A DNA stretch of 64,000 bases from a virus (Duplodnaviria > Caudoviricetes): IMG/VR virus record IMGVR_UViG_3300031813_000005, positions 1 to 64,000 of that record, one strand, 5' to 3'. The notes below the pieces were generated by a model that saw only the letters and a list, made by a program, of their open reading frames with translations, was not told the DNA's origin and made no database searches. The position numbers and the translations under genes are program-made. Positions within the stretch are counted from its first letter, which is position 1. Each line of letters opens with the position of its first letter. This document shows, one piece after another, positions 7,221-45,275 of the stretch.

Positions 7221-10200
7221 TTAAAACTCTGTTACATACAAAGTTCCAGTAGTTGTACTGGTACCACCAGTTGGACAAACCATAGAAATATCTACCCAAT
7301 ATTGAGTACCTATTGTAAGACCAGATATAGCCATAGAACTTCCAGAATAATATTCATGTAAAACATTCACAGAAATAGTAAATGTAAAATATTGTGTACC
7401 AAATAATCCAGGAACAGCTGTTCCAGTAGAAGCTGCTCCAGCAGCTGGTTTAGTTCCTGTTCCATACATTACTTGATAAGTAGCTGTACCTGCTCCAGTA
7501 CTATTAACTATAGCTGCTGGGAAAAATATAAGAAGGCGCGTCGAGGTGCTTGGTGTAATATAAATACCTTGCCCAGACATAAAAGTACCATTACTATTGG
7601 AATAACTAATAGAACCTGTAGAAATAGTCGGAGAAAATACTTTATTGACTACTGTAGCTACTTGATGGCCACCAAAATTGGCATTAGTTCCTAACTCAAA
7701 CTGAACATTTGTTGTAGAACCATCACCAAGAAATGTAGTTGGATACGCTGTTCCAGATAATTTAAATCCAACTGGAGCGGTTGATGTTGTACCAACAGCA
7801 TAGTTTGTAGAACGTATTGTATTAGTAACTGAAAAATCAGATATTAGTTTATTAGCAGTTAAAGTATTAGTAGTTACGCTTCCGCCATCTATTGTAGTTG
7901 TATTTGAACCACCATTAGCGGTATTAATAGCTCCAACAATACCATTAGCGCCAGTAATAACAATTTTTCCACCGTTAATTGTAGTACTGTTAGCATTAAC
8001 ATCAGCAGCGGCACCGCCAACTGGAACATAAGAACCTGAAATAGTTACAATACCATTAAATGTTAATGTATGATGCGTTCCATCATAAGAAAAATAAGGC
8101 GTTCCAGTATTCGGGTCTACAAGATTAAATTGTGAAGCGTCTAGTGTAAATGTAGATGCTGTTGAAGATAACGTAGTATCTGTTAATAAACAAGTGACAT
8201 TACAATATGGTCCAGAACTACCTACATTAAATGTAATACTTGAACCAGTAGTTCCAGATGTAATTGTTCCGTTAGTTATAGTCCAACTATATGTATAAGT
8301 ATGTCCAGAAATCAAAGAATTACTATTTATACTTGCTGTTAAACCTGTTGTAGATGGAGCAACGTTAGCGGGAGCGCTGTCTATTACAGGATATGTAGTA
8401 TTTGAACCTGATAATGGTTGTGCTATAACATTCATAGAAGCAACAGCATTTGAAACGGTAGAAATTGTTCCACCATGACCATCAGATGTTGTATCAATTA
8501 TCTTACAAGCTAATGTTACAGTTCCACCAAAACCAGCATTAAATGTTACGCTATTTCCTGTTGTGCTTCCTGATATAGTTCCACCAGAAATAGCCCATAA
8601 ATATGAAGTATGCCCTGTAGGTACAGATGCTGTATATGGCCCAGCATAATGTGTAGCTCCATAAGCATAACTATTAGCCGGAACTCCAGAAACTATAATA
8701 GTATTTGTTTGACCTGTAAATGGAACTATAGCAACAGTGGCTATAGCAGACGATTCGTTGCCAGCAGATAATGACATTCCCATAGAACCGTGCAGACCAG
8801 TATTTAATGTTAATCCATAAGTAGCTGAAGTTCCGTTAGTTGATGTTTGCGATGTAACAACAGAAGAGTTTTGGTTTCCTATTGTAGTTCCTAAAGCATT
8901 AATCGCATCTGCTATTGCTATACCTTGAGCAGTATATGTACTAAAAGCATTATTAATTTGTGAACTTATTTGTGTATATGTTCCACCAGTTAAGGTATTA
9001 AAATTAGAATTTAATGTGCTAAAAGAAGAGGCTGAAGCGTAATTTACACTTGCTGCCGTAATAGCACCGGAAGTATAAGTTGCTATAGATGTTATTGCTC
9101 CAGAACCAGTTAATGTTTGAACTTGACTGTTTAATGTGCTAAAAGATGAAGCTGAAGCATACCCTGTTCCAGCTGTTGTAATTGCGCTGGAAACATAAGA
9201 TGATATTGATGTTATTGCTCCAGAGTCAGTTAATGTACTTACTTGTGATGTTATTGCTGTAAGTTCACCAGCAGAAGCATAATCAGAACTTATTGCTGTT
9301 GTATATGCTGTGACGTATGAAGCAATAGATTGACCACCTAAACCAGTTGTTAAAGTATTATATTCAGAAACACCGGCATTAATCTGATATTGTAATTTTC
9401 CAAAAGCAGCAGCAACTGTATCTGTATTAGCTATTGGACCTAAATTAGAAGATGGATATGTATAAAAAGATATTACAGTATCCCCAAGTCTTGCTGGGCT
9501 TAAGAAATATAAACTTCCAGCTTCTGGTATATTTGCTGTTGTTAAACTTACAGCACCAGTAAATGTATTTACAGATATAACTTCTGTAGCAGAACCATTA
9601 ATTTTATCCCAATGAGCGCCATCAAATACAGCGTCATCACCAATGTTCCAATTTGAAATACCATCTAATGTAGTAGTTCCAGCAACAGATACTTTAAAGT
9701 ATTGTCCTTTTGTTCCTACACCAGAAACTAATGCTGGTGAATTAGTAGCAGCATTCCATGTTCCTTGATAATTTAGAGACCCTATAATAGATGAGGGTAA
9801 TATAGAAAGAGGTATTTTTCCAGAACCATCAGTTCCAGCTAAACCGTTTGGATTGGCTAATAAATAGTTTATTTCATCTGTAACAAACTTTGTAGTAGCA
9901 AATTGTGTATTACCACCAGTTGCTAATGTTACAGGAGAAAAACTAATACTTGTGGTTGTTGCTTCTGTAAAAGCATTAATGCCATAAAAAGTATTATTTG
10001 AAGTAGTATTTACAGCACCTGATAGATTTATATCTCCAGAACCTGACAAATCATTAAGATGGAAGTTCCAGGCAGAAGAAGTATTATTCCATTGTAAAGA
10101 TAAGTGAGGATTGGTGGAAATACCTGGAGTTGTAGTAGTTTGAAATACTAAATATTTAGGAGTTGTTGAAGAATCAGATGGATTACCAATGACAAAATCA

Positions 10201-10253
10201 TCATCGGCTGTTGTGGTCCAGCGGAATTGGCTTGTTCTTAATTCACCTGACAT
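7221..10253 (-). CDS. Tail fibre/spike-like virion protein with 40-aa helical repeats and Ig/PKD-like domains
   Basis: Ser/Thr/Gly-rich; YQGTWNA...GDDAVFDGAHWDKI...VISVNTFTGAV fibre motifs; repeated YASASSFSTLNS units; two YxWxIxxGTIxxxTTGxSxTF Ig-like modules. Confidence 0.75.
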   Translation of the reverse strand: MSGELRTSQFRWTTTADDDFVIGNPSDSSTTPKYLVFQTTTTPGISTNPHLSLQWNNTSSAWNFHLNDLSGSGDINLSGAVNTTSNNTFYGINAFTEATTTSISFSPVTLATGGNTQFATTKFVTDEINYLLANPNGLAGTDGSGKIPLSILPSSIIGSLNYQGTWNAATNSPALVSGVGTKGQYFKVSVAGTTTLDGISNWNIGDDAVFDGAHWDKINGSATEVISVNTFTGAVSLTTANIPEAGSLYFLSPARLGDTVISFYTYPSSNLGPIANTDTVAAAFGKLQYQINAGVSEYNTLTTGLGGQSIASYVTAYTTAISSDYASAGELTAITSQVSTLTDSGAITSISSYVSSAITTAGTGYASASSFSTLNSQVQTLTGSGAITSIATYTSGAITAASVNYASASSFSTLNSNFNTLTGGTYTQISSQINNAFSTYTAQGIAIADAINALGTTIGNQNSSVVTSQTSTNGTSATYGLTLNTGLHGSMGMSLSAGNESSAIATVAIVPFTGQTNTIIVSGVPANSYAYGATHYAGPYTASVPTGHTSYLWAISGGTISGSTTGNSVTFNAGFGGTVTLACKIIDTTSDGHGGTISTVSNAVASMNVIAQPLSGSNTTYPVIDSAPANVAPSTTGLTASINSNSLISGHTYTYSWTITNGTITSGTTGSSITFNVGSSGPYCNVTCLLTDTTLSSTASTFTLDASQFNLVDPNTGTPYFSYDGTHHTLTFNGIVTISGSYVPVGGAAADVNANSTTINGGKIVITGANGIVGAINTANGGSNTTTIDGGSVTTNTLTANKLISDFSVTNTIRSTNYAVGTTSTAPVGFKLSGTAYPTTFLGDGSTTNVQFELGTNANFGGHQVATVVNKVFSPTISTGSISYSNSNGTFMSGQGIYITPSTSTRLLIFFPAAIVNSTGAGTATYQVMYGTGTKPAAGAASTGTAVPGLFGTQYFTFTISVNVLHEYYSGSSMAISGLTIGTQYWVDISMVCPTGGTSTTTGTLYVTEF
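8985..9350 (-). repeat. About three degenerate 120-bp (40-aa) tandem repeats in the fibre gene
   Basis: TTAATGTGCTAAAAGA.GA.GCTGAAGC at 9011 and 9131; YASA...TLT...G.I.SI..Y repeated. Confidence 0.8.
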
Positions 10254-16906: not shown

Positions 16907-16936
16907 AAACACAAGGCCCCGATAAGTTCGGGGCCT
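16907..16936 (-). terminator. Intrinsic terminator
   Basis: AGGCCCCGA-N5-TCGGGGCCT 9-bp stem, then TGTGTTT. Confidence 0.75.
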
Positions 16937-16957: not shown

Positions 16958-18325
16958 TTAAAAATTAAAGTTTAAACTTATATTCAAAGCTTTATCATTA
17001 CTTGTATCCATACCCATGACATTATCTAAATCAGAAATATCAACTGGTTGACCGCCTTGTGGTATTACTGAAGGAGCACCTGGGACACCATTGGTTCTAA
17101 CATACTGTCTCATATTAGGAATAGAGTGCTTTGGAGTTGTAGGTTTCTTTACTAAATTGCCTTCTGCGTCTTTACCGATAGTTTCTTGGGCATTTGGAAC
17201 ACCATTATTTTGAGCTACTGTGCCAACAATATCTTTTAATCCAAGCATATCATCGTTTGGAACCCAAAAAGCAGACTCTTTACCAGAAGGATTAGCTTCT
17301 TGTTCGGCTTCCATAGTTCCACACTCTTCTTCAGTGCTACAACCCTCCCCCTCACCAATTTGTGGTTCAGCAGAATTAGTATTTGGCTGGTCCTTACTAT
17401 CACCAGCACCTTTAGTAAAGTCTTTACCTTTTTCTGTAGCTTCTTGTCCATCTTCTTGTGTGTATGAATTATCTACACCAGTTTTATCATCTGGAATTAT
17501 TTCTTTTTCTGTTTTTTCTCCCTCAACTTCTGGAGAAACTTTACCACCAATACCAGACCAAGTGGAATCTGTTTTACCGTCTACTTTAGAAGGATTAGTT
17601 TCATTACCACTAACCTTCATTTCGCCACTTTGATCAACGGAATCTGGGTTCTCATCTTCTGAAACTTCACTATTGCCATCTGTATCAGATACATCTGTCA
17701 TTCCATCAGTTGCTGTATCATCTTCTTCGTCAACTAACATATCTCCAGCTGGCTTTACAGCAACATCACCTTCTTCTGATAAATCAGGAGCAGTTAAAGC
17801 TTCACTATTACTACCACCACCTAATACAGATAACGCGCTCATAATATCTTCTGTAGTATAGATAGGAATAGTAGTAGCTTCTTTAATAGGTACAGCCGAA
17901 GCAGCAGCCTCTTCTTTTGATAATATAAAACCCTGTGTTGGATTTTTTGGGTCAACATAAAGTTTACGACCGTCTGGTAATTCTGTAATTTGAAGATTAG
18001 GATTATTTAAATCCATTTGAGGAGTTGCTTGTGTTGCTGGCTGTCCAGGAGAAGGTGCGGCAGGATTAGCTGGAGCTACTTGAGTTGGTTTTTCTTTTCC
18101 ACCGGGATTTGATGCTGTGTTAGTATTTTGGGGATTAGAAAACTCAGGTTGTTGTATCTGAACATCATTAGCTTTTACTTGTTTATTACTATATGATTTG
18201 TTGAGGTCAGCTGCTGATATAGGAGCAATATCCTCAAGAAAAAGTTTCCTCGTCTCTTTTAATTCAGAAGACATAGAAGTATATTTATCTGCGGCTATTT
18301 TAAATAGAGACTTAGGATTTTTCAT
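16958..18325 (-). CDS. Acidic low-complexity hypothetical protein (possible internal head protein)
   Basis: 455 aa, D/E/P/Q-rich and probably disordered; candidate xxE protease sites (LFLE, PIKEA). Confidence 0.7.
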   Translation of the reverse strand: MKNPKSLFKIAADKYTSMSSELKETRKLFLEDIAPISAADLNKSYSNKQVKANDVQIQQPEFSNPQNTNTASNPGGKEKPTQVAPANPAAPSPGQPATQATPQMDLNNPNLQITELPDGRKLYVDPKNPTQGFILSKEEAAASAVPIKEATTIPIYTTEDIMSALSVLGGGSNSEALTAPDLSEEGDVAVKPAGDMLVDEEDDTATDGMTDVSDTDGNSEVSEDENPDSVDQSGEMKVSGNETNPSKVDGKTDSTWSGIGGKVSPEVEGEKTEKEIIPDDKTGVDNSYTQEDGQEATEKGKDFTKGAGDSKDQPNTNSAEPQIGEGEGCSTEEECGTMEAEQEANPSGKESAFWVPNDDMLGLKDIVGTVAQNNGVPNAQETIGKDAEGNLVKKPTTPKHSIPNMRQYVRTNGVPGAPSVIPQGGQPVDISDLDNVMGMDTSNDKALNISLNFNF

Positions 18326-18329
18326 GTTA

Positions 18330-18875
18330 TTAATTTTCTTTATCAGATTTCTTTAACTTGCCTTTGACTTTCTCAACTATTTCTTCAGCTTTTTCTTCAG
18401 CTTCAGCAACGTCTGCTTTAACTTCAGCAACTACTTCTTCTACTTTTGTTTCAACAGTAGCTACCTCTGTTTTAACTTCAGCAACTACTTCTTCAACCTT
18501 TTCTTCTACTTTTTCTACAATAGTTTCAGCTTTTTGCTCATCAACTTTTACTTCAGCTACTTCTGTTTTTACTTCAGCTACTTCTGTTTTTACTTCATTT
18601 ACTACAACAGCAACTTCTGCTGGTTTTTCAAGAGAAGCCATAAAAGGTTTAATAGGTGCTTGAGCAGCTGGAACTGGAGATGGGGCAGGAGCAGGTTCTG
18701 GTGTTCCTACTTGAACACAACTTAAAATATTTGGAACATAAAGTGTTAATCCTGGATAATCTAATGTTAATGTTGCTCCTGGCTGAAAAGACTTGATGCT
18801 TACGCTATTTTGGTCTTTTGCTGACAGTATTAAGTTTTGTGTTTGATTAGTAATATTTTTATAAATATAGTTCAT
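18330..18875 (-). CDS. Hypothetical protein: N-terminal beta module, Pro/Ala linker, EVK(T)EVA heptad tail
   Basis: 181 aa, GAGG RBS, repeats visible at the DNA level. Confidence 0.75.
   Translation of the reverse strand: MNYIYKNITNQTQNLILSAKDQNSVSIKSFQPGATLTLDYPGLTLYVPNILSCVQVGTPEPAPAPSPVPAAQAPIKPFMASLEKPAEVAVVVNEVKTEVAEVKTEVAEVKVDEQKAETIVEKVEEKVEEVVAEVKTEVATVETKVEEVVAEVKADVAEAEEKAEEIVEKVKGKLKKSDKEN
18546..18597. repeat. 21-bp tandem repeat (2.5 copies) encoding EVKTEVA
   Basis: TTTTACTTCAGCTACTTCTGT x2 plus a partial copy. Confidence 0.9.
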
Positions 18876-19057
18876 TATTTCCTCTTGTTATTAGGATTAC
18901 AAATCCCGCATGTGACTTTACCGGGCAAAGTTTTACAAACACAAGCAACTGTTGTGTTTTCTGGTGTTCTTCTTAATGTAGTACCTTTTCCAACTGGTTT
19001 ATTATATCCACCCGGCGTGACAGAGCCTGTTGTAGTGGCTTCTAATATTCTCTTCAT
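18875..19057 (-). CDS. 60-aa mini-protein with a major-capsid N-arm-like segment and CxC..CxxC tail
   Basis: AGGAG RBS; EATTTGSVTPGGYNK versus major capsid EATTTAATTPGGYNK. Confidence 0.85.
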   Translation of the reverse strand: MKRILEATTTGSVTPGGYNKPVGKGTTLRRTPENTTVACVCKTLPGKVTCGICNPNNKRK

Positions 19058-19059
19058 GT

Positions 19060-19515
19060 CTATCTCCTGACGAAACTTGATGTATGAGGTACTTCTTTTA
19101 TTGGTGTAGCTGGGTCAATTGGTATTGCTTGTGTAGCAGTATTAATATGTACATCATTCTGTTTTAAATGATTTAATAACTCTTCTGGGTCTTGAAAGTA
19201 ATCTGGATATTTTTGAGCAAGCTCTTGTTTTATTATATTTACATTTGGTATAATACTTGGAGCTTTCATTGAAAGGTCTGTTAATTTTATAAATAATGGT
19301 TGAACAACATTTTGCCAATCAGCTGGAGGATTAGTGTTTATAAGAGTTCTAATATTTCCAATTAGTTTAAATGCTTCAGCTTCAGCAACAGCCGGTGAAA
19401 ACATAGAGGCTCTTCCCATAGCTTCCATTATATTAGCATCTTTTATGATTTCAGATATAATATCTTCTACATTTTTTATAGAAACAAATTCAAAAATTGA
19501 TAGGCGCGTTGTCAT
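19060..19515 (-). CDS. Hypothetical protein
   Basis: 151 aa preceded by the late motif; candidate xxE-A site (IMEA). Confidence 0.7.
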   Translation of the reverse strand: MTTRLSIFEFVSIKNVEDIISEIIKDANIMEAMGRASMFSPAVAEAEAFKLIGNIRTLINTNPPADWQNVVQPLFIKLTDLSMKAPSIIPNVNIIKQELAQKYPDYFQDPEELLNHLKQNDVHINTATQAIPIDPATPIKEVPHTSSFVRR

Positions 19516-19536
19516 AATGTATCTCTATTATTTAAT

Positions 19537-22500
19537 TTACGATGTTGAGAAATATTCTACTTCTATTGTATTGCCAGAAACAAGCCCGAGAGAAATATTT
19601 GGATTTAAAGCTATTGAAGCTATTGTATTAGAGCCTTCTATTCTAAATAAGAAAGTCCAATCTCTCTTATAAACTGTTGTAATTCCATTTACTATAACAA
19701 CTACATTTGGTGCCGCAACATCATACAAACCAAAAGGTTGATATTGAATAGGATTAGAACTTGAATTAATATAATTTGCTAATATTTGAGTTCCATTATA
19801 CCAAGCAACACAAGGAACTTCTCCAGTATGTGGTAAATCGTACAAATATCTATTTCCTTCTTGGATTATAGCTATATCTCCAGAAGTTAATGTATAATTT
19901 AGAGTTCTTGCGTATAAAGGGCTTGGTAATGGATTACTGCTTTGACCTGGAAGTTCTTCATATTCAACTGTTATAATATCTCCTATATCAATAGGGTCTA
20001 AAACAGTTATTGATTTAATAGCAGAATATCCTAATGTCCAACTTGTTCCATATTGTAATAAAATACCATTTAAGAATAGTTTAATATTTGGAAAAACATT
20101 TATTCCGTAAGCTGCTGAAGAATAAAAACCAAAAGCTACGCTTTGACCGGAGTCTACTCCTGACCAGACTACCCAAATATTAGATTGAGATAAGTTATAT
20201 GTCGTAATAGTATTATCAACAACAGTAAAAGTATCAGTTACTGGAACTAATCCAGTTACTAATAAGCTTAAAGCATCTAATCCTTCATTTATGCCAGGTA
20301 TTGTTGAAGGATTTAAATTCGTTGGCATATTTCCAGCATATAAAGATGTTTTTATATTATATTCTGTAGGAGATACTTCTGTAAAATAGGTTGATTGATT
20401 TGTACCAGAAGAGGCATTATCATAATAAGTGTCTGAAGATGGGAAAGTTAATCCATATCCAGTAGAATTGATAGTAGCTTTTTGACCAATACCGGACTCT
20501 AATATTGGAACAACCTGTAAATCGTCGGAAAATCCAGGAGAGAAGTAAGATAAAGATACATCTGTACCATCAGATAAAACATATTTATAATTATCTACTC
20601 TTGGTGGAGTACTTGTATCAACAGCATAATCAGTAGACTGTTCAGATCTATTAAAAGCTGGAACTTCATTTCTAAATACTTGTAAATTATCTCTTCTACT
20701 TTGTATGTATGGAACAGAGGCTAATTTACAAGAACTTCTATTCCATATATTAGCTCTATTAGAGTTTATTGTTCTTGAAACTAAAAACTGATTTGGGTCA
20801 CTGGGATTATATAATTGTAATGCCGCTGCCCATTGATCGGAATTAGTATCTTTTAATTGAGCGGCTTCAGAAGTATCAATAGATGTATATGGTATTTCTG
20901 ACTCTGTTGTAGAAGAAACATTATAATAATTTCCCCACCAATTGTTTGTAATTACTTGATCGCCCAAATATACTGCTGTATATTCTGGTGAATATACTTC
21001 CCATTGAGTTTTATCTAATCTATTTAACGGATTTCTTGAAACTACGTTATGACCATCTACGAGTTGATTTTTTAAATAGCTTCTGTTATAAATATTAGTT
21101 GGTGTTCTAAACTTTTTAGTTCCTATTACAGTTTTTTGTTGTGTTCCGCCATTTAAAATGTTAACAGAACTTACTTGTGTTGGCATAACACTTTCAAGTG
21201 TAGGATTTTTAGTAGTATTTGTTAAAGTTTGTCTTGTAAACTTATGATTTATTCTTGTAGTATATCTAAAGCCTCTTATTGGTATACCATTTTCTGTTTC
21301 ATCACTATATGTTATTCTCGATAAATATAAAATATGTAATTTGCTATTTAATAAAAAAGTATAATCAGTAGCATTTCCTACTTTTGGTGCTATTGTAGAA
21401 GAATTGAGATATATATTATTAGTGTTATCAAAATAATAATCTATATTATGAGTTAAAATATTAGAATATGTAGTACTTTCTATTGTTGTTTCTAATACAA
21501 CCATAAAAGTGTTATCATATAAACTCTTAAATAATGCTGTATTAGTCATACTTGAACTCAATACAGATGAATTAAAGATAGAAAGTGCCTGTAAATCCCA
21601 AGGTCTGGAAGGTAAAGTACTTGTAGTAGTTGGTGGGAGCAAAGCCTGTGTATCATATGTGGTAGATACAATAGACCTATAAGGTTGGGTAGTAGAACTA
21701 ACACTTGAAATAACAGAACTTGTTAACCCTGGAATATAGTTAGTGGCTAATATTTTATCATATCCATTACTATCAGGTGTTGTAGTTTGATTTATAAAAT
21801 CAGTTATACCTTGTTGAGAAGAAAACATAGATTTAAAGTCTAAAACTGGGTCTGATAATAAATTAGATATATTATATTGTAATACATCATGTCCTGGATT
21901 ATAGATAGTAAATACACCAGGATTATTAACAGTAGCTTCAATAGTTCCAGTCATGTCAGTAAACATGTAATTATTTGTTCCGATAACTGGAGTAAACCCA
22001 ATTAAATCTTCTAAAGTATAAATATTATTTCCAATAGAAGCTATAGATATTAAAGTTGAATTGTCTCCAACAGGAAATGTCTTTACTGGCATAGATTTTT
22101 TAGCTATATCATACAAAGAGCTTTCTTCGTTTGGAGTTAATGAAGATAAATCTATTGTTTTATATATACTTGTAATAACACCACGATTATCTAATTGGCT
22201 TATTGGCGCTTCTTCATTTTCTGGTATTACATCTACTGCTGGAGTAGTACTATAAGTAATAGTATTTTCAGCTCTATCCATAGTCATAACTACAGCAGAG
22301 TCTAATTCTTCCTGGACATTAAAAATATCACTATTTATAGCCGTCTGGTCATAAATAAACTCAGATACATCATAGCGAACTTCCAAGTTTTCTATAAATA
22401 CATGAAAAGGCTTAAATTGAAGCAATAAATCTAATGCCCCACTAAAATTATTTTCTTTTACGGTCCCATCAGGATTTTGTGCGTCTAAATCATTGTTATA

Positions 22501-42039: not shown

Positions 42040-43647
42040 TTAGCTCTGGTACATGTTAAGTACTTGGAGATTAGCAAGACCATACTTACCATCAAGTAGG
42101 ACCTTGTGGTCATATCTCTGTTGTAGACCAACGATTGTGGAGAACATGTCACCACTTAAAACGTCAGCTTGTGGAGGAGTTAAGTAAGTTACATAGGGGA
42201 AGTAAGCATAAGGAGCCTTGGCTAAATCCTTAGAAGTATAACCCATTAACATCTTATCAGACTGAGGATGATAAGCATTCTTGGCAATTGTATAACTGTC
42301 AATTGTACCCATCTTTTCAGCATTTACATTAAAGTCGCCCTGGTGAAGATGATTTAGGTCGCTCATATGGAAATTATTGGTGTTTTGTAGAATATTGAAG
42401 AGGTGTGGGTGGCAGATAGCGAAGAAATCATCACCACGTAGATAATTTACAGACATATCGTTAGAAACGAAGTTCATCTTGTGAACTAATGTCTGGTTGT
42501 ATTCAGCTTGCGTACCACGGAACTGACCAGTTGGATATAAAGCATTCCATGTGGTAGTAGCGTAGGCGGTCTGCATCATGGCTAAAGTTAATTCCTGGTC
42601 GATTTCAAGGGCCATTGTTTCAGTCATAGCAGTTACTAATTCCTTGAGGGCATCAATCTTGCCATCAGTGTAAGCTTCTAAATCCTGGATAGCTTCAGCA
42701 GAAATCTGAGCAAAGTTCTTACGAGCTTTGGCGTTAACCTGAATAGTATCCATAGCGAAGCTGATTTCACTTAAAGCAGTCTTATTACGCTCAAGAGAGA
42801 AGGAGTAATTCATTTCCCAGTGGAAAGTATCAGCAGGTTCACCAGAAACATCAGATTGCTGAGGAACTGGAAGAGCAGCTAAATTGACCATAGGAGCGGT
42901 GCCATTTAATACACCATAGTTAGCAATAGTAACACCAGATAATACTAAACCAGTTGAAGAGCTGACGAAAAGACCAGCACCATTATCGTAAGCATAAACT
43001 ACAGCAGAACGAGGATCGTTGTCAGGAACTAACATAATCTGGGCAGAGCCAGGAAGTAAAGGACCATAAGCAAGTGTTTGACCATTAGAGCCAGTTACAC
43101 CAGAAGCAGACATTACTTCACCAACTACTGATTGAGCAGAATAGTTAGGGTCTAATGCAAACTTATTACCCTGCCAAATGTTCTGACCAATTACTTGACC
43201 AGTAGCAGATGTTACAGGAGTGTAACGTTGAAGCTGGCTGGGATCAGCCCATTCTGTACCAGCACCAACACCATCCTTGGCATTTTTGCGGTTTAAACGG
43301 AAGGTTTGGATTATCTGTGTAGGAACATCCAACTGACGAGTAGCAACGAACTTCGTAGCAACTACCTGGGGTAGAACACGACGAATAATTGTTGGTAACA
43401 TGGCCTTGTTGTAACCACCAGGAGTGGTTGCAGCGGTTGTAGTGGCTTCAGATAAACTTAAAGCATACTTCATAGACTGTACGGTGTGCATAAATACTGT
43501 ATTACGAGTATCTTCATCCTTGATGCCCTGAAGGTGTTCCATGATGCCTGCCCAGTATGGGGCACGACCACGGGACTTGGCTACTTCTTCATCTCGCTTG
43601 AGAATAGATTTAACCTTTGATTCTAATAGAGGTTCTTGATTTAACAT
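42040..43647 (-). CDS. Major capsid protein (T4 gp23-like)
   Basis: PTIIRRVLP, VNAKARK, EAIQDL, MALEIDQE and YAYFPYV motifs; biased codon usage; strong terminator; likely cleavage at LSE^A. Confidence 0.96.
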   Translation of the reverse strand: MLNQEPLLESKVKSILKRDEEVAKSRGRAPYWAGIMEHLQGIKDEDTRNTVFMHTVQSMKYALSLSEATTTAATTPGGYNKAMLPTIIRRVLPQVVATKFVATRQLDVPTQIIQTFRLNRKNAKDGVGAGTEWADPSQLQRYTPVTSATGQVIGQNIWQGNKFALDPNYSAQSVVGEVMSASGVTGSNGQTLAYGPLLPGSAQIMLVPDNDPRSAVVYAYDNGAGLFVSSSTGLVLSGVTIANYGVLNGTAPMVNLAALPVPQQSDVSGEPADTFHWEMNYSFSLERNKTALSEISFAMDTIQVNAKARKNFAQISAEAIQDLEAYTDGKIDALKELVTAMTETMALEIDQELTLAMMQTAYATTTWNALYPTGQFRGTQAEYNQTLVHKMNFVSNDMSVNYLRGDDFFAICHPHLFNILQNTNNFHMSDLNHLHQGDFNVNAEKMGTIDSYTIAKNAYHPQSDKMLMGYTSKDLAKAPYAYFPYVTYLTPPQADVLSGDMFSTIVGLQQRYDHKVLLDGKYGLANLQVLNMYQS

Positions 43648-43747: not shown

Positions 43748-44602
43748 TTAAAAAATATCAAGGGGTTCGAGCATTCCCTTTGGGGCAGAGGTAGAAGCTA
43801 TTTTTGCGGCTTCTCTCTTTTTTACATCCTCTGCTAAAGCTACTAAAGAAGACTTCATATCTTTAGTTGGTTTTGTGGGAGTTTCAGCAACTGGAGCAGG
43901 AGCTACAACAGCTTCTGTTACAGGTTCGGCTGGTTTAGCTTCTTCTCTAATTGAAGCCTTAATGCTTTCAATAGCATCTTTTGCTTCTACTAACGTATTT
44001 GGTTTTGCTTCTTTTAAAGCAGCAACAATTACTGTTTTCTTTTCTAATGGATAGCCAGCACATTCTTTAACAACTAAAGCCTCTAATTCATCAGAAAGTA
44101 CCTTGCTACGAAGTTTAGCATTTTCAAGCTTTTCAGCGTTTAATAAGCTCTTGTACTTTTCAACACTTTCAGTATTAGCTTCTACTAATTCATTAATGTT
44201 GAAAAAAGGAGAAAGTGAACGAACAGCATTAGAAAAAGCTTCTTGCATCTTTTCAATCTTGCTGTCTGGAGTAGCATCTTCTGTTACAGCTTTAGTAACC
44301 TTACTAACAGACTCGTTAATAAAATTGAATACATCTGTAGCAACTTTCTTTGAAAGTTCCTTAAACTTGGCTTCATAAACATCTTTTAATTTAGCTTCGT
44401 ATAAATTAGCCTTGCTTAAAAGCATTTGCTTTTTGATGAATAGTTCTTTTTCGCCAGCTTTTTTAGCTTCTTCAAGTTCTTGCAGCTTTTTATCGAGAGC
44501 ATCTTGACGCTCCTTGCACTGCTCTTGAATAGCAGATTCTAAAACCTCTTTAATTTCAGGGGTTTCTAATAATTCATTAATTTCTTTTATTTTAATTGCC
44601 AT
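43748..44602 (-). CDS. Prohead scaffold (T4 gp22-like)
   Basis: E/K-rich coiled coil with many L/IxE sites, located between protease and capsid genes. Start at ATG 44602 (AGGTG RBS). Confidence 0.8.
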   Translation of the reverse strand: MAIKIKEINELLETPEIKEVLESAIQEQCKERQDALDKKLQELEEAKKAGEKELFIKKQMLLSKANLYEAKLKDVYEAKFKELSKKVATDVFNFINESVSKVTKAVTEDATPDSKIEKMQEAFSNAVRSLSPFFNINELVEANTESVEKYKSLLNAEKLENAKLRSKVLSDELEALVVKECAGYPLEKKTVIVAALKEAKPNTLVEAKDAIESIKASIREEAKPAEPVTEAVVAPAPVAETPTKPTKDMKSSLVALAEDVKKREAAKIASTSAPKGMLEPLDIF

Positions 44603-44616
44603 GTTTATCACCTACA

Positions 44617-44627: not shown

Positions 44628-45275
44628 TTACTTATTTCTTAAAATTTCTCTAATATGTTCTTTAAATTGTTCTGTAATTCTTTCATCTTCTAAGGCTTGA
44701 TGTATAGAACGACCGTATTTCTTTGCTTCATTTACAGCATGAACATAAGCTTGTTGTGTGCTTGGATCGTGAACACAATCAAACGTTATTAGCTTATATT
44801 CATTTACTACATCACCAGTACTATATCCTTTAGATAAAGCACCTAACCCACGGCTTGAAATACCAACCGTACAATTATTTCTAATTAAAGCACCAAGTAA
44901 TCTACCAGAAGGTGTTCCTGCTGGACCTGGGTCATCAAATACTATTGCTTCTCCGAGTAAATCTTTACCAGAGAAGTTTAATGTCGTAATAACGTGACTT
45001 ACATTCTTTAACGATACTGTAGGATTACCATCAGCTGGGTGGTCTAATTCACCAAACATGTTTTTTGAATCTAAACTATCTTTAGCTTCCCCTAAAGCAC
45101 GAACTAATACATCATAAGGATATACTCTACCATTATGATTTTTAGCATCAGCTCTTTGAAAAATGCCACGGATTTTTAAACTTTTCCAAGAAGAGTTTGG
45201 AGTAAGGGCTTCTTCAAGAACCTCAAAACCACGGGTTGTACCGCAGTCATCTTTCATGAACTCTAAATTACTCAT
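44628..45275 (-). CDS. Prohead protease (T4 gp21-like)
   Basis: GIFQRADAKNHNGRVYP, GELDHP, GISSRGLG and FDCVHDPS motifs. Confidence 0.97.
   Translation of the reverse strand: MSNLEFMKDDCGTTRGFEVLEEALTPNSSWKSLKIRGIFQRADAKNHNGRVYPYDVLVRALGEAKDSLDSKNMFGELDHPADGNPTVSLKNVSHVITTLNFSGKDLLGEAIVFDDPGPAGTPSGRLLGALIRNNCTVGISSRGLGALSKGYSTGDVVNEYKLITFDCVHDPSTQQAYVHAVNEAKKYGRSIHQALEDERITEQFKEHIREILRNK

Follow-up and report, generated by a model that had tools for sequence, protein, structure and literature searches.

A 60-residue late protein of a T4-like phage carries a co-varying copy of the predicted maturation site and N-fist equivalent of its own major capsid protein

Why should a phage encode, in the baseplate and neck part of its late region and about 23 kb from its head genes, a 60-residue protein that opens with what reads as a piece of its own major capsid protein (MCP)? 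The question arises from the window, the 64,000-nucleotide stretch of DNA analyzed here, which is part of a 127-kb IMG/VR virus record (IMGVR_UViG_3300031813_000005) from an uncultured phage, with a completeness estimate of 56%. The minus strand of the window follows a T4-like morphogenetic order of large terminase, portal, a 427-aa acidic protein, an S77 (gp21-type) prohead protease, a scaffold-like protein, and a gp23-type MCP, continued by tail tube, sheath, baseplate hub, and a 1229-aa gpI-like baseplate protein. After the gpI-like gene come p151, the 60-aa ORF (hereafter the mini-protein), p181, and p455, and then sheath stabilizer, baseplate wedge, and head-tail adaptor genes. No close relative was found among deposited phages by blastn and tblastn against a phage collection, the best MCP identities being 22–31%. 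The features on which the analysis turns are as follows.

19530–19537, minus strand: late-promoter-like octamer AATTAAAT, just 5′ of p151
19060–19515, minus strand: p151, upstream gene of the unit; found in some relatives (164–192 aa), missing from G001 and L009
19064–19068, minus strand: AGGAG ribosome-binding site, 6 nt 5′ of the ATG, within the 3′ end of the upstream gene
18875–19057, minus strand: mini-protein gene, 60 aa plus stop; dN/dS 0.06–0.15 against L008–L011
18330–18875, minus strand: p181, downstream gene, whose start overlaps the mini-protein stop (TAATG)
16958–18325, minus strand: p455, acidic low-complexity protein, last gene of the unit
16914–16936, minus strand: strong intrinsic-terminator-like hairpin (9 pairs, 7 GC), 3′ of p455
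42040–43647, minus strand: MCP, gp23 type, 535 aa (PF07068)
43372–43473, minus strand: MCP residues 59–92, the copied segment, with the predicted maturation site L65-S-E67/A68, the N-fist equivalent, and the base of the N-arm
43748–44611, minus strand: probable scaffold protein, by position and composition only
44628–45275, minus strand: prohead protease of the T4 gp21 family (Pfam Peptidase_S77)

The ORF at 18875–19057 (−) is a real, conserved late gene. Its translation and its ribosome-binding site are as an earlier, sequence-only reading of this DNA had given them. The start codon lies 2 nt past the p151 stop, and the stop overlaps the p181 start, an arrangement that indicates translational coupling with both neighbors. 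The low dN/dS values, obtained pairwise against the four relatives at dS of 0.7–2.3, indicate purifying selection. An antisense ORF of 77 aa (18837–19070, +) spans the entire gene; it is most likely a shadow frame, because the minus-strand frame is the one under purifying selection. Since the octamer precedes p151 and the terminator-like hairpin follows p455, the four genes p151, mini-protein, p181, and p455 look like one late unit. In all relatives examined, the small gene comes after a gpI-like baseplate gene, in some cases with a p151-like gene in between, and is immediately followed by a p181-like gene, the N-domain of which is conserved beside it in each case. Searches of Pfam and PHROG returned no match for any of the four proteins, and the proteins neighboring the mini-protein gene had no PDB sequence match.

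Homologs of the mini-protein fall into about 36 clusters overall, with about 23 close ones at 90% identity; those beyond the close clusters came from an exhaustive profile search together with a longer form of 81–105 aa. A whole-library profile search with the family recovered 6 representative clusters only; none was a fused form, and no MCP came up at E ≤ 0.001. Pattern scans gave no match in viral or genome contigs and, in metagenomes, short contigs only. Across the family T8, R30, and the four cysteines are invariant or nearly so, as are G16-G17-Y18-N19-K20 within the close clade.

The relation to the capsid protein was established at several levels. The MCP itself is securely identified, scoring 98.6 bits against PF07068 (cutoff 24.4). 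BLASTP aligns the mini-protein with it at E 0.008 over 28 residues, and hhalign of the two families gives a probability of 96% and E 3.7e-9 over 28 columns, pairing mini-protein residues 3–31 with MCP residues 64–92. In four further phage records, too, the mini-protein profile recovers the N-arm of the MCP, with E from 5e-8 to 1.6e-4. When MCP residues 59–95 were searched against the whole 127-kb record, the matches were the MCP itself and the mini-protein ORF (E 6.2e-5) only. The 12 identities in 15 residues that had been counted earlier between the mini-protein and MCP E67–K81 (43405–43449) were recomputed with the same result. A general tag of protease substrates was considered as a source of the likeness and rejected: GGYN is absent from all other open frames of at least 20 aa in the record, so the copied motif is not such a tag.

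In terms of extent, the copy spans both sides of the cut, from P6 to about P25′. An HMM alignment to T4 gp23* anchors TIIRR of the MCP on T4 GMVRR, and the segment from cut to anchor is therefore 18 residues here versus 31 in T4. Judged by this alignment, the copy in the mini-protein takes in the predicted cut site and the complete N-fist equivalent as well as the anchor, and ends with the invariant Arg. L65, E67, A68, T69, Y79, N80, and K81 are invariant among the MCPs. There is one gp23-like gene in each of the window's record (G000) and the relatives G001 and G002, the latter two being 93–95% complete, and no gp24-type vertex paralog was detected in these three whole records; the pentons are thus presumably built of the MCP or of an unrecognized protein. 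A second N-fist copy was also sought in two distant gp23-type phages, Flavobacterium phage immuto and Microcystis phage Mel-JY01, and was not found, under conditions in which the own-genome positive control worked. Two minor matches were recorded. Residues 22–45 of PDB chain 9tic_d (‘ORF67’, 124 aa) give a non-significant match to the mini-protein profile (E 0.76) with the pattern T-G-x-T-T-x-G-G-Y-D-K...R. The MCP homolog P0037, 78% identical in the N-region, carries an NCBI label as a MAG protein of the archaeon Ignisphaera sp. and probably derives from a misbinned phage contig.

The mini-protein can be divided into four parts, namely a short leader, a copy of the MCP segment past the cut, a four-cysteine putative zinc knuckle, and a basic tail.

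19040–19057, minus strand: leader, residues 1–6, ending I-L-E (hydrophobic-x-E, a T4 gp21-type site)
18965–19039, minus strand: copy of the MCP mature N-terminus, residues 7–31, comprising the N-fist equivalent and the start of the N-arm and ending with the invariant Arg30
18899–18943, minus strand: four-cysteine motif CxC-x8-CxxC (C39, C41, C50, C53)
18878–18898, minus strand: basic C-terminal tail, residues 54–60

As the sequence-only reading had implied, an LxE motif precedes the copied stretch in both the mini-protein and the MCP. The gene of a T4 gp21-type (Pfam S77) protease lies close by. E6 of the mini-protein is conserved in at least 90% of family members. The leader has 6 aa in the window's clade and 9–11 aa in the G002, G003, and G005 forms, where an LxE-type motif is again present. 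Removal of the leader would give a mature protein of 54 aa and 5.6 kDa with a predicted pI of about 10. Three metagenomic homologs (P0021, P0022, and P0023) have a predicted start at Met-Ala at the proposed cut position, without a leader; such starts would fit a mature N-terminus at that Ala.

The cysteine motif and basic tail reported earlier are present, but the spacing is CxC-x8-CxxC and not x9. C41, C50, and C53 are invariant and C39 is nearly so; the window's clade has the CxC-x8-CxxC arrangement, and in G001 and in the longer forms both pairs are CxxC (CxxC...CxxC), the second being followed by a His. The conservation of four metal-ligand-type cysteines in two pairs marks a putative zinc module, for which no Pfam zinc-finger model was matched, and the basic tail ends every form of the family. 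The longer forms are a 105-aa protein in G003 (L045:4962-5279, −) and a 93-aa protein in G005 (L044:10791-11072, +). The former carries a 19-residue Ala/Thr/Ser-rich insert between the LxE site and the MCP-like motif and the latter 3–4 extra residues; both have a bigger CxxC...CxxC-His domain with a weak PHROG match to the zinc region of an HNH endonuclease (E 4e-4).

AlphaFold2 models of the 60-aa form are of low confidence and show a disordered N-terminal half, and in the 81-aa form a zinc-ribbon-like part is predicted with moderate confidence (pLDDT about 80). A Foldseek search with the 81-aa form found no structural neighbor. A complex prediction of two mature MCP chains with mini-protein residues 7–60 gave a score of 0.25 (mark, 0.32), which weighs neither for nor against binding.

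Whether the likeness is maintained was addressed with same-genome pairs of mini-protein and MCP, taken from the IMG/VR records behind the MCP loci (n = 6).

Window: MCP ...TPGGYNK, mini-protein ...TPGGYNK; 14 residues from cut to Lys in both
G001: MCP ...VAGYNK, mini-protein ...VAGYSK; 12 residues in both, a matched 2-residue shortening
G002: MCP TTSSSVATY, mini-protein TTSSSVATY; nine residues identical
G003: MCP TTSASVATY, mini-protein TTSASIAKY; 19-residue insert before the copy
G005: MCP TTTS...AGGY, mini-protein TTTS...SGGTF; copy begins 3–4 residues past the cut site
G006: MCP as in G002, mini-protein close to that of G002

Pair by pair in these six genomes, the length and the residues ahead of the conserved Tyr agree between the two proteins. 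In a 6 × 6 score matrix each mini-protein scores best with the MCP of its genome or with one from its clade, and the observed diagonal is reached by only 2 of 720 permutations, a figure that is not a clean probability, as the six genomes are related. Because several clade-specific changes are matched, one indel included, a coupling between mini-protein and MCP is needed. The sequence-only reading had staked its proposal on homologs that co-vary with the capsid N-arm, and such homologs are found here. Among members of the window's clade, no variation is seen in the MCP segment, while the copy in the mini-protein differs at several positions.

The codons speak to how the likeness has been kept. 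Six of the seven TPGGYNK codons differ at synonymous positions only (ACT/ACG, CCT/CCG, GGT/GGA, TAC/TAT, AAC/AAT, AAG/AAA), exactly as first noted, and most residues shared by mini-protein and MCP use different codons, including TCN versus AGY serines. Recent gene conversion is therefore unlikely and was rejected; an old conversion followed by synonymous drift under selection at the peptide level is possible. The pattern points to selection on the peptide, and not recent DNA copying, as the agent that has kept the likeness, in agreement with what had been proposed from the window.

A protein of comparable design exists in T4. Gp61.1, a 54-aa ‘hypothetical’ protein of phrog_1823 (3e-33; the long form is phrog_2086), consists of a leader, a copy of gp23 residues of about 59–95, and a Lys-rich tail. 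It is identical to gp23 at 17 of 37 positions (E 2e-10) and, searched against the T4 genome, matches gene 23 at E 1.4e-5. Like the mini-protein, it has a short leader ending in hydrophobic-x-E, then a free copy of the maturation site and N-fist of its own MCP, and then a charged or basic tail. Unlike the mini-protein, it lacks a cysteine motif, and its gene adjoins the primase gene, whereas the mini-protein gene lies in a late structural unit past a gpI-like baseplate gene. Neither the window protein nor four relatives matched phrog_1823 or phrog_2086, even at E 10; hhalign of the mini-protein family with gp61.1 gave a probability of 1%, with no significant profile similarity; and phrog_1823 is absent from G000–G002. 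Because it has no phrog_1823 match and has a zinc module in addition, we file the family as a functional analog of gp61.1 with a different C-terminal module and genomic position, and not as a member.

The biology of T4 gp23 suggests what such a copy could do. Gp21 takes 65 residues off gp23. Before the head expands, gp23 residues 66–105 are disordered and lie in its interior, where they are probably bound to the scaffold core; in the expanded head they lie on the outside as the N-arm and the 25-residue N-fist (66–91), which contacts four subunits and contributes to the Soc sites (PMC9546572, PMC9958956, PMC7136217). Because the copy changes together with the MCP in related phages, the mini-protein probably uses the contacts of the MCP itself in head assembly. 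The reading that we favor, and that we hold to be about evenly balanced between right and wrong, is of a minor head protein that is loaded into the prohead, trimmed by the S77 protease, and addressed or docked through the N-terminal contacts of the MCP. The copy would make the same contacts as the MCP N-terminal segment, and the mini-protein would in this way enter the prohead as it assembles. At the LxE site the leader would then be cut off, as for the MCP, by the S77 (gp21-type) prohead protease, and the 5.6-kDa basic zinc module would remain in the head as payload, with the inner wall or the DNA as its likeliest location. We infer cleavage, prohead incorporation, binding partner, and final location from T4 biology and the conserved LxE motif.

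Besides the match itself, its co-variation with the MCP, the codon differences, and the T4 analog, this reading is supported by the invariance of MCP L65 and E67, the strong conservation of mini-protein E6, and the presence of an encoded S77 protease. A disordered N-terminal half joined to a small folded zinc domain, as predicted by AlphaFold2, is the pattern to be expected of a docking peptide with a payload. Against it stand the position of the gene in the baseplate and neck region, far from the head genes; the 6-residue leader, which is shorter than the roughly 10-aa capsid-targeting sequence of T4; the different tag, PLD[IF], borne by other candidate core proteins of this genome; and the G003 and G005 forms, in which the copy lies away from the predicted new N-terminus. 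The latter two forms also contradict one part of the sequence-only reading, which had both proteins begin identically after maturation: as a general rule this fails, since the copy starts 19 residues (G003) or 3–4 residues (G005) past the LxE. These displaced copies argue against a strictly identical N-terminus and against pure P′-side recognition by the protease.

The internal head proteins of T4 offer a partial parallel. IPI, IPII, IPIII, and Alt resemble the mini-protein in being small and basic and in having a leader that stops at an LxE-type site, again in the presence of an S77 protease (PMC9958956). Core proteins with such a leader are trimmed by gp21 in T4, and for these four, loading into the prohead core and gp21 trimming are expected (PMC9958956). 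The mini-protein differs from them in carrying a copy of the MCP N-terminus past the cut site and, in the window's clade, in having a leader of only 6 aa; no sequence similarity to them was found. If the copy does act through MCP contacts, phages would have a simple means of directing small proteins to the head, namely a duplicate of part of the capsid protein itself, and an overlooked component would be added to the T4-type head, which is among the best studied of virus assemblies. The co-variation in six genomes makes this a concrete, testable prediction, and T4, a model phage, lends itself to a test of the principle because it carries the analogous, unstudied gene 61.1.

An alternative that we consider unlikely, and that goes back to the sequence-only reading, gives the processed mini-protein a permanent place in the mature shell, where its N-fist copy would fill docking sites that have no MCP partner, for example at the portal, or would pair with MCP N-fists as a cement, riveting the zinc and basic module to the wall. 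The sequence-only reading had also named the vertices as possible vacant sites, and it had suggested that the mini-protein might tune capsid size or tether a zinc- or DNA-binding module inside the head; all of these are possible but speculative. Once the T4 head has expanded, the N-fist is docked on four subunits, and five N-fists that face the portal remain disordered (PMC9958956, PMC7136217). The lack of a gp24-like vertex paralog in two near-complete relatives favors this alternative, and the co-variation fits a common docking site. Tiny capsid proteins that are disordered until bound are also known: gp4 of Patience and Adjutor (about 6 kDa), T4 Soc, and lambda gpD are, like the mini-protein, tiny and partly disordered alone, and become ordered only on the capsid lattice (PMC11965321), and Soc sites are partly built by N-fists (PMC9958956). 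Unlike the mini-protein, none of the three copies an MCP segment, and against decoration and cement families of the Soc, gpD, and Hoc types the mini-protein had no Pfam, PHROG, PDB-sequence, or Foldseek match. The 19 extra residues before the copy in G003 clash with a strict N-terminal fit, and the vacant sites are purely an extrapolation from T4.

In a wider form, to which we give a similarly low probability, gp23-type phages in general would encode a detached, co-evolving N-fist copy, of which 61.1 and the zinc-knuckle family would be two forms; once trimmed by the prohead protease, it would be a component of the lattice, docking in the place of an MCP N-fist or pairing with MCP N-fists (for example at unsatisfied portal-facing sites such as those of T4), and would hold a basic DNA-binding module against the inner wall. 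If so, the detached N-fist copy would be an unrecognized class of capsid stabilizer or DNA anchor.

Improbable too, and ranked next, is a regulatory role, in which the mini-protein would mimic the MCP cleavage junction and so compete as a pseudo-substrate or a pseudo-partner. It would thereby adjust when the MCP is cleaved, or how the MCP contacts the scaffold, and then be degraded or lost. The copy does cover both sides of the cut, and it co-varies with the MCP. However, a regulatory role leaves unexplained why the zinc knuckle and the basic tail are conserved, the displaced copies in G003 and G005 do not keep their distance from the cut site, and T4 gp21 substrates are not known to have a P′-side motif in common. 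Competition through a copied capsid-binding motif has a precedent in CpmB of SaPI1, which competes with the 80alpha scaffold (PMC5644958). CpmB resembles the mini-protein as a small protein bearing a copied short capsid-assembly interaction motif, and it makes the same contacts as the original (PMC5644958). The two differ in that the satellite copies the C-terminal helix-and-hook of the 80alpha scaffold and hijacks its helper, whereas the mini-protein copies the MCP of its own phage; their sequences are unrelated.

We regard it as very unlikely that the mini-protein is a tail, baseplate, or other zinc-finger protein, the N-terminus of which is a relic of an old partial MCP duplication with no present functional link. 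Its position right after the gpI-like baseplate gene in all relatives would suit such a protein, but the clade-specific matched changes and the saturated synonymous divergence require a continuing coupling, and the conservation of T8, Y18-N19-K20, and R30 likewise argues against a relic.

Equally hard to credit, and placed just below it, is a cytoplasmic decoy for a host or phage factor that recognizes the uncleaved N-terminal segment of the MCP, such as a capsid-sensing defense or a chaperone. Defenses that sense the MCP exist (Lit/Gol, CapRel), a decoy would have to track its own MCP, as observed, and the uncleaved junction is included in the copy; the T4 analog 61.1 stands among early and middle accessory genes such as dmd and sp. 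The mini-protein gene, however, is late, translationally coupled, and within a structural region without defense-related neighbors, and a decoy leaves the zinc and basic module unexplained.

Chance similarity or a non-coding ORF, for which only the shortness of the match could be cited, is given a negligible probability and is ruled out by the family, the profile statistics, and the dN/dS values.

Several further motifs were noted in this genome. At about residues 155–165 of p455, I-K-E is followed by A-T-T, a possible LxE-type site with a similar P′ side that may be due to chance. A 1010-aa tail protein (7221–10253) has F-T-E followed by A-T-T-T, which may again be fortuitous. The C-terminus of the scaffold-like protein (43748–44611, −) reads EPLDIF, and a pattern search located PLD[IF] near the N-termini of three consecutive ORFs outside the window, at genome positions 80631–80939, 81398–81886, and 81858–82286 (−). 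PLD[IF], shared in this way, may be a head-targeting tag that mimics the scaffold, and its sharing suggests that the copying of assembly motifs is a wider habit of this genome. Proteins of the p151 family open with stretches of the type L-x-[IL]-x-[ED]-F-[IV], which are similar to PLD[IF] (window 19060–19515, −; L040:16783-17277, −; L045:5281-5790, −; L044:10211-10789, +); if this resemblance is real, all four genes of the unit could encode head-core proteins.
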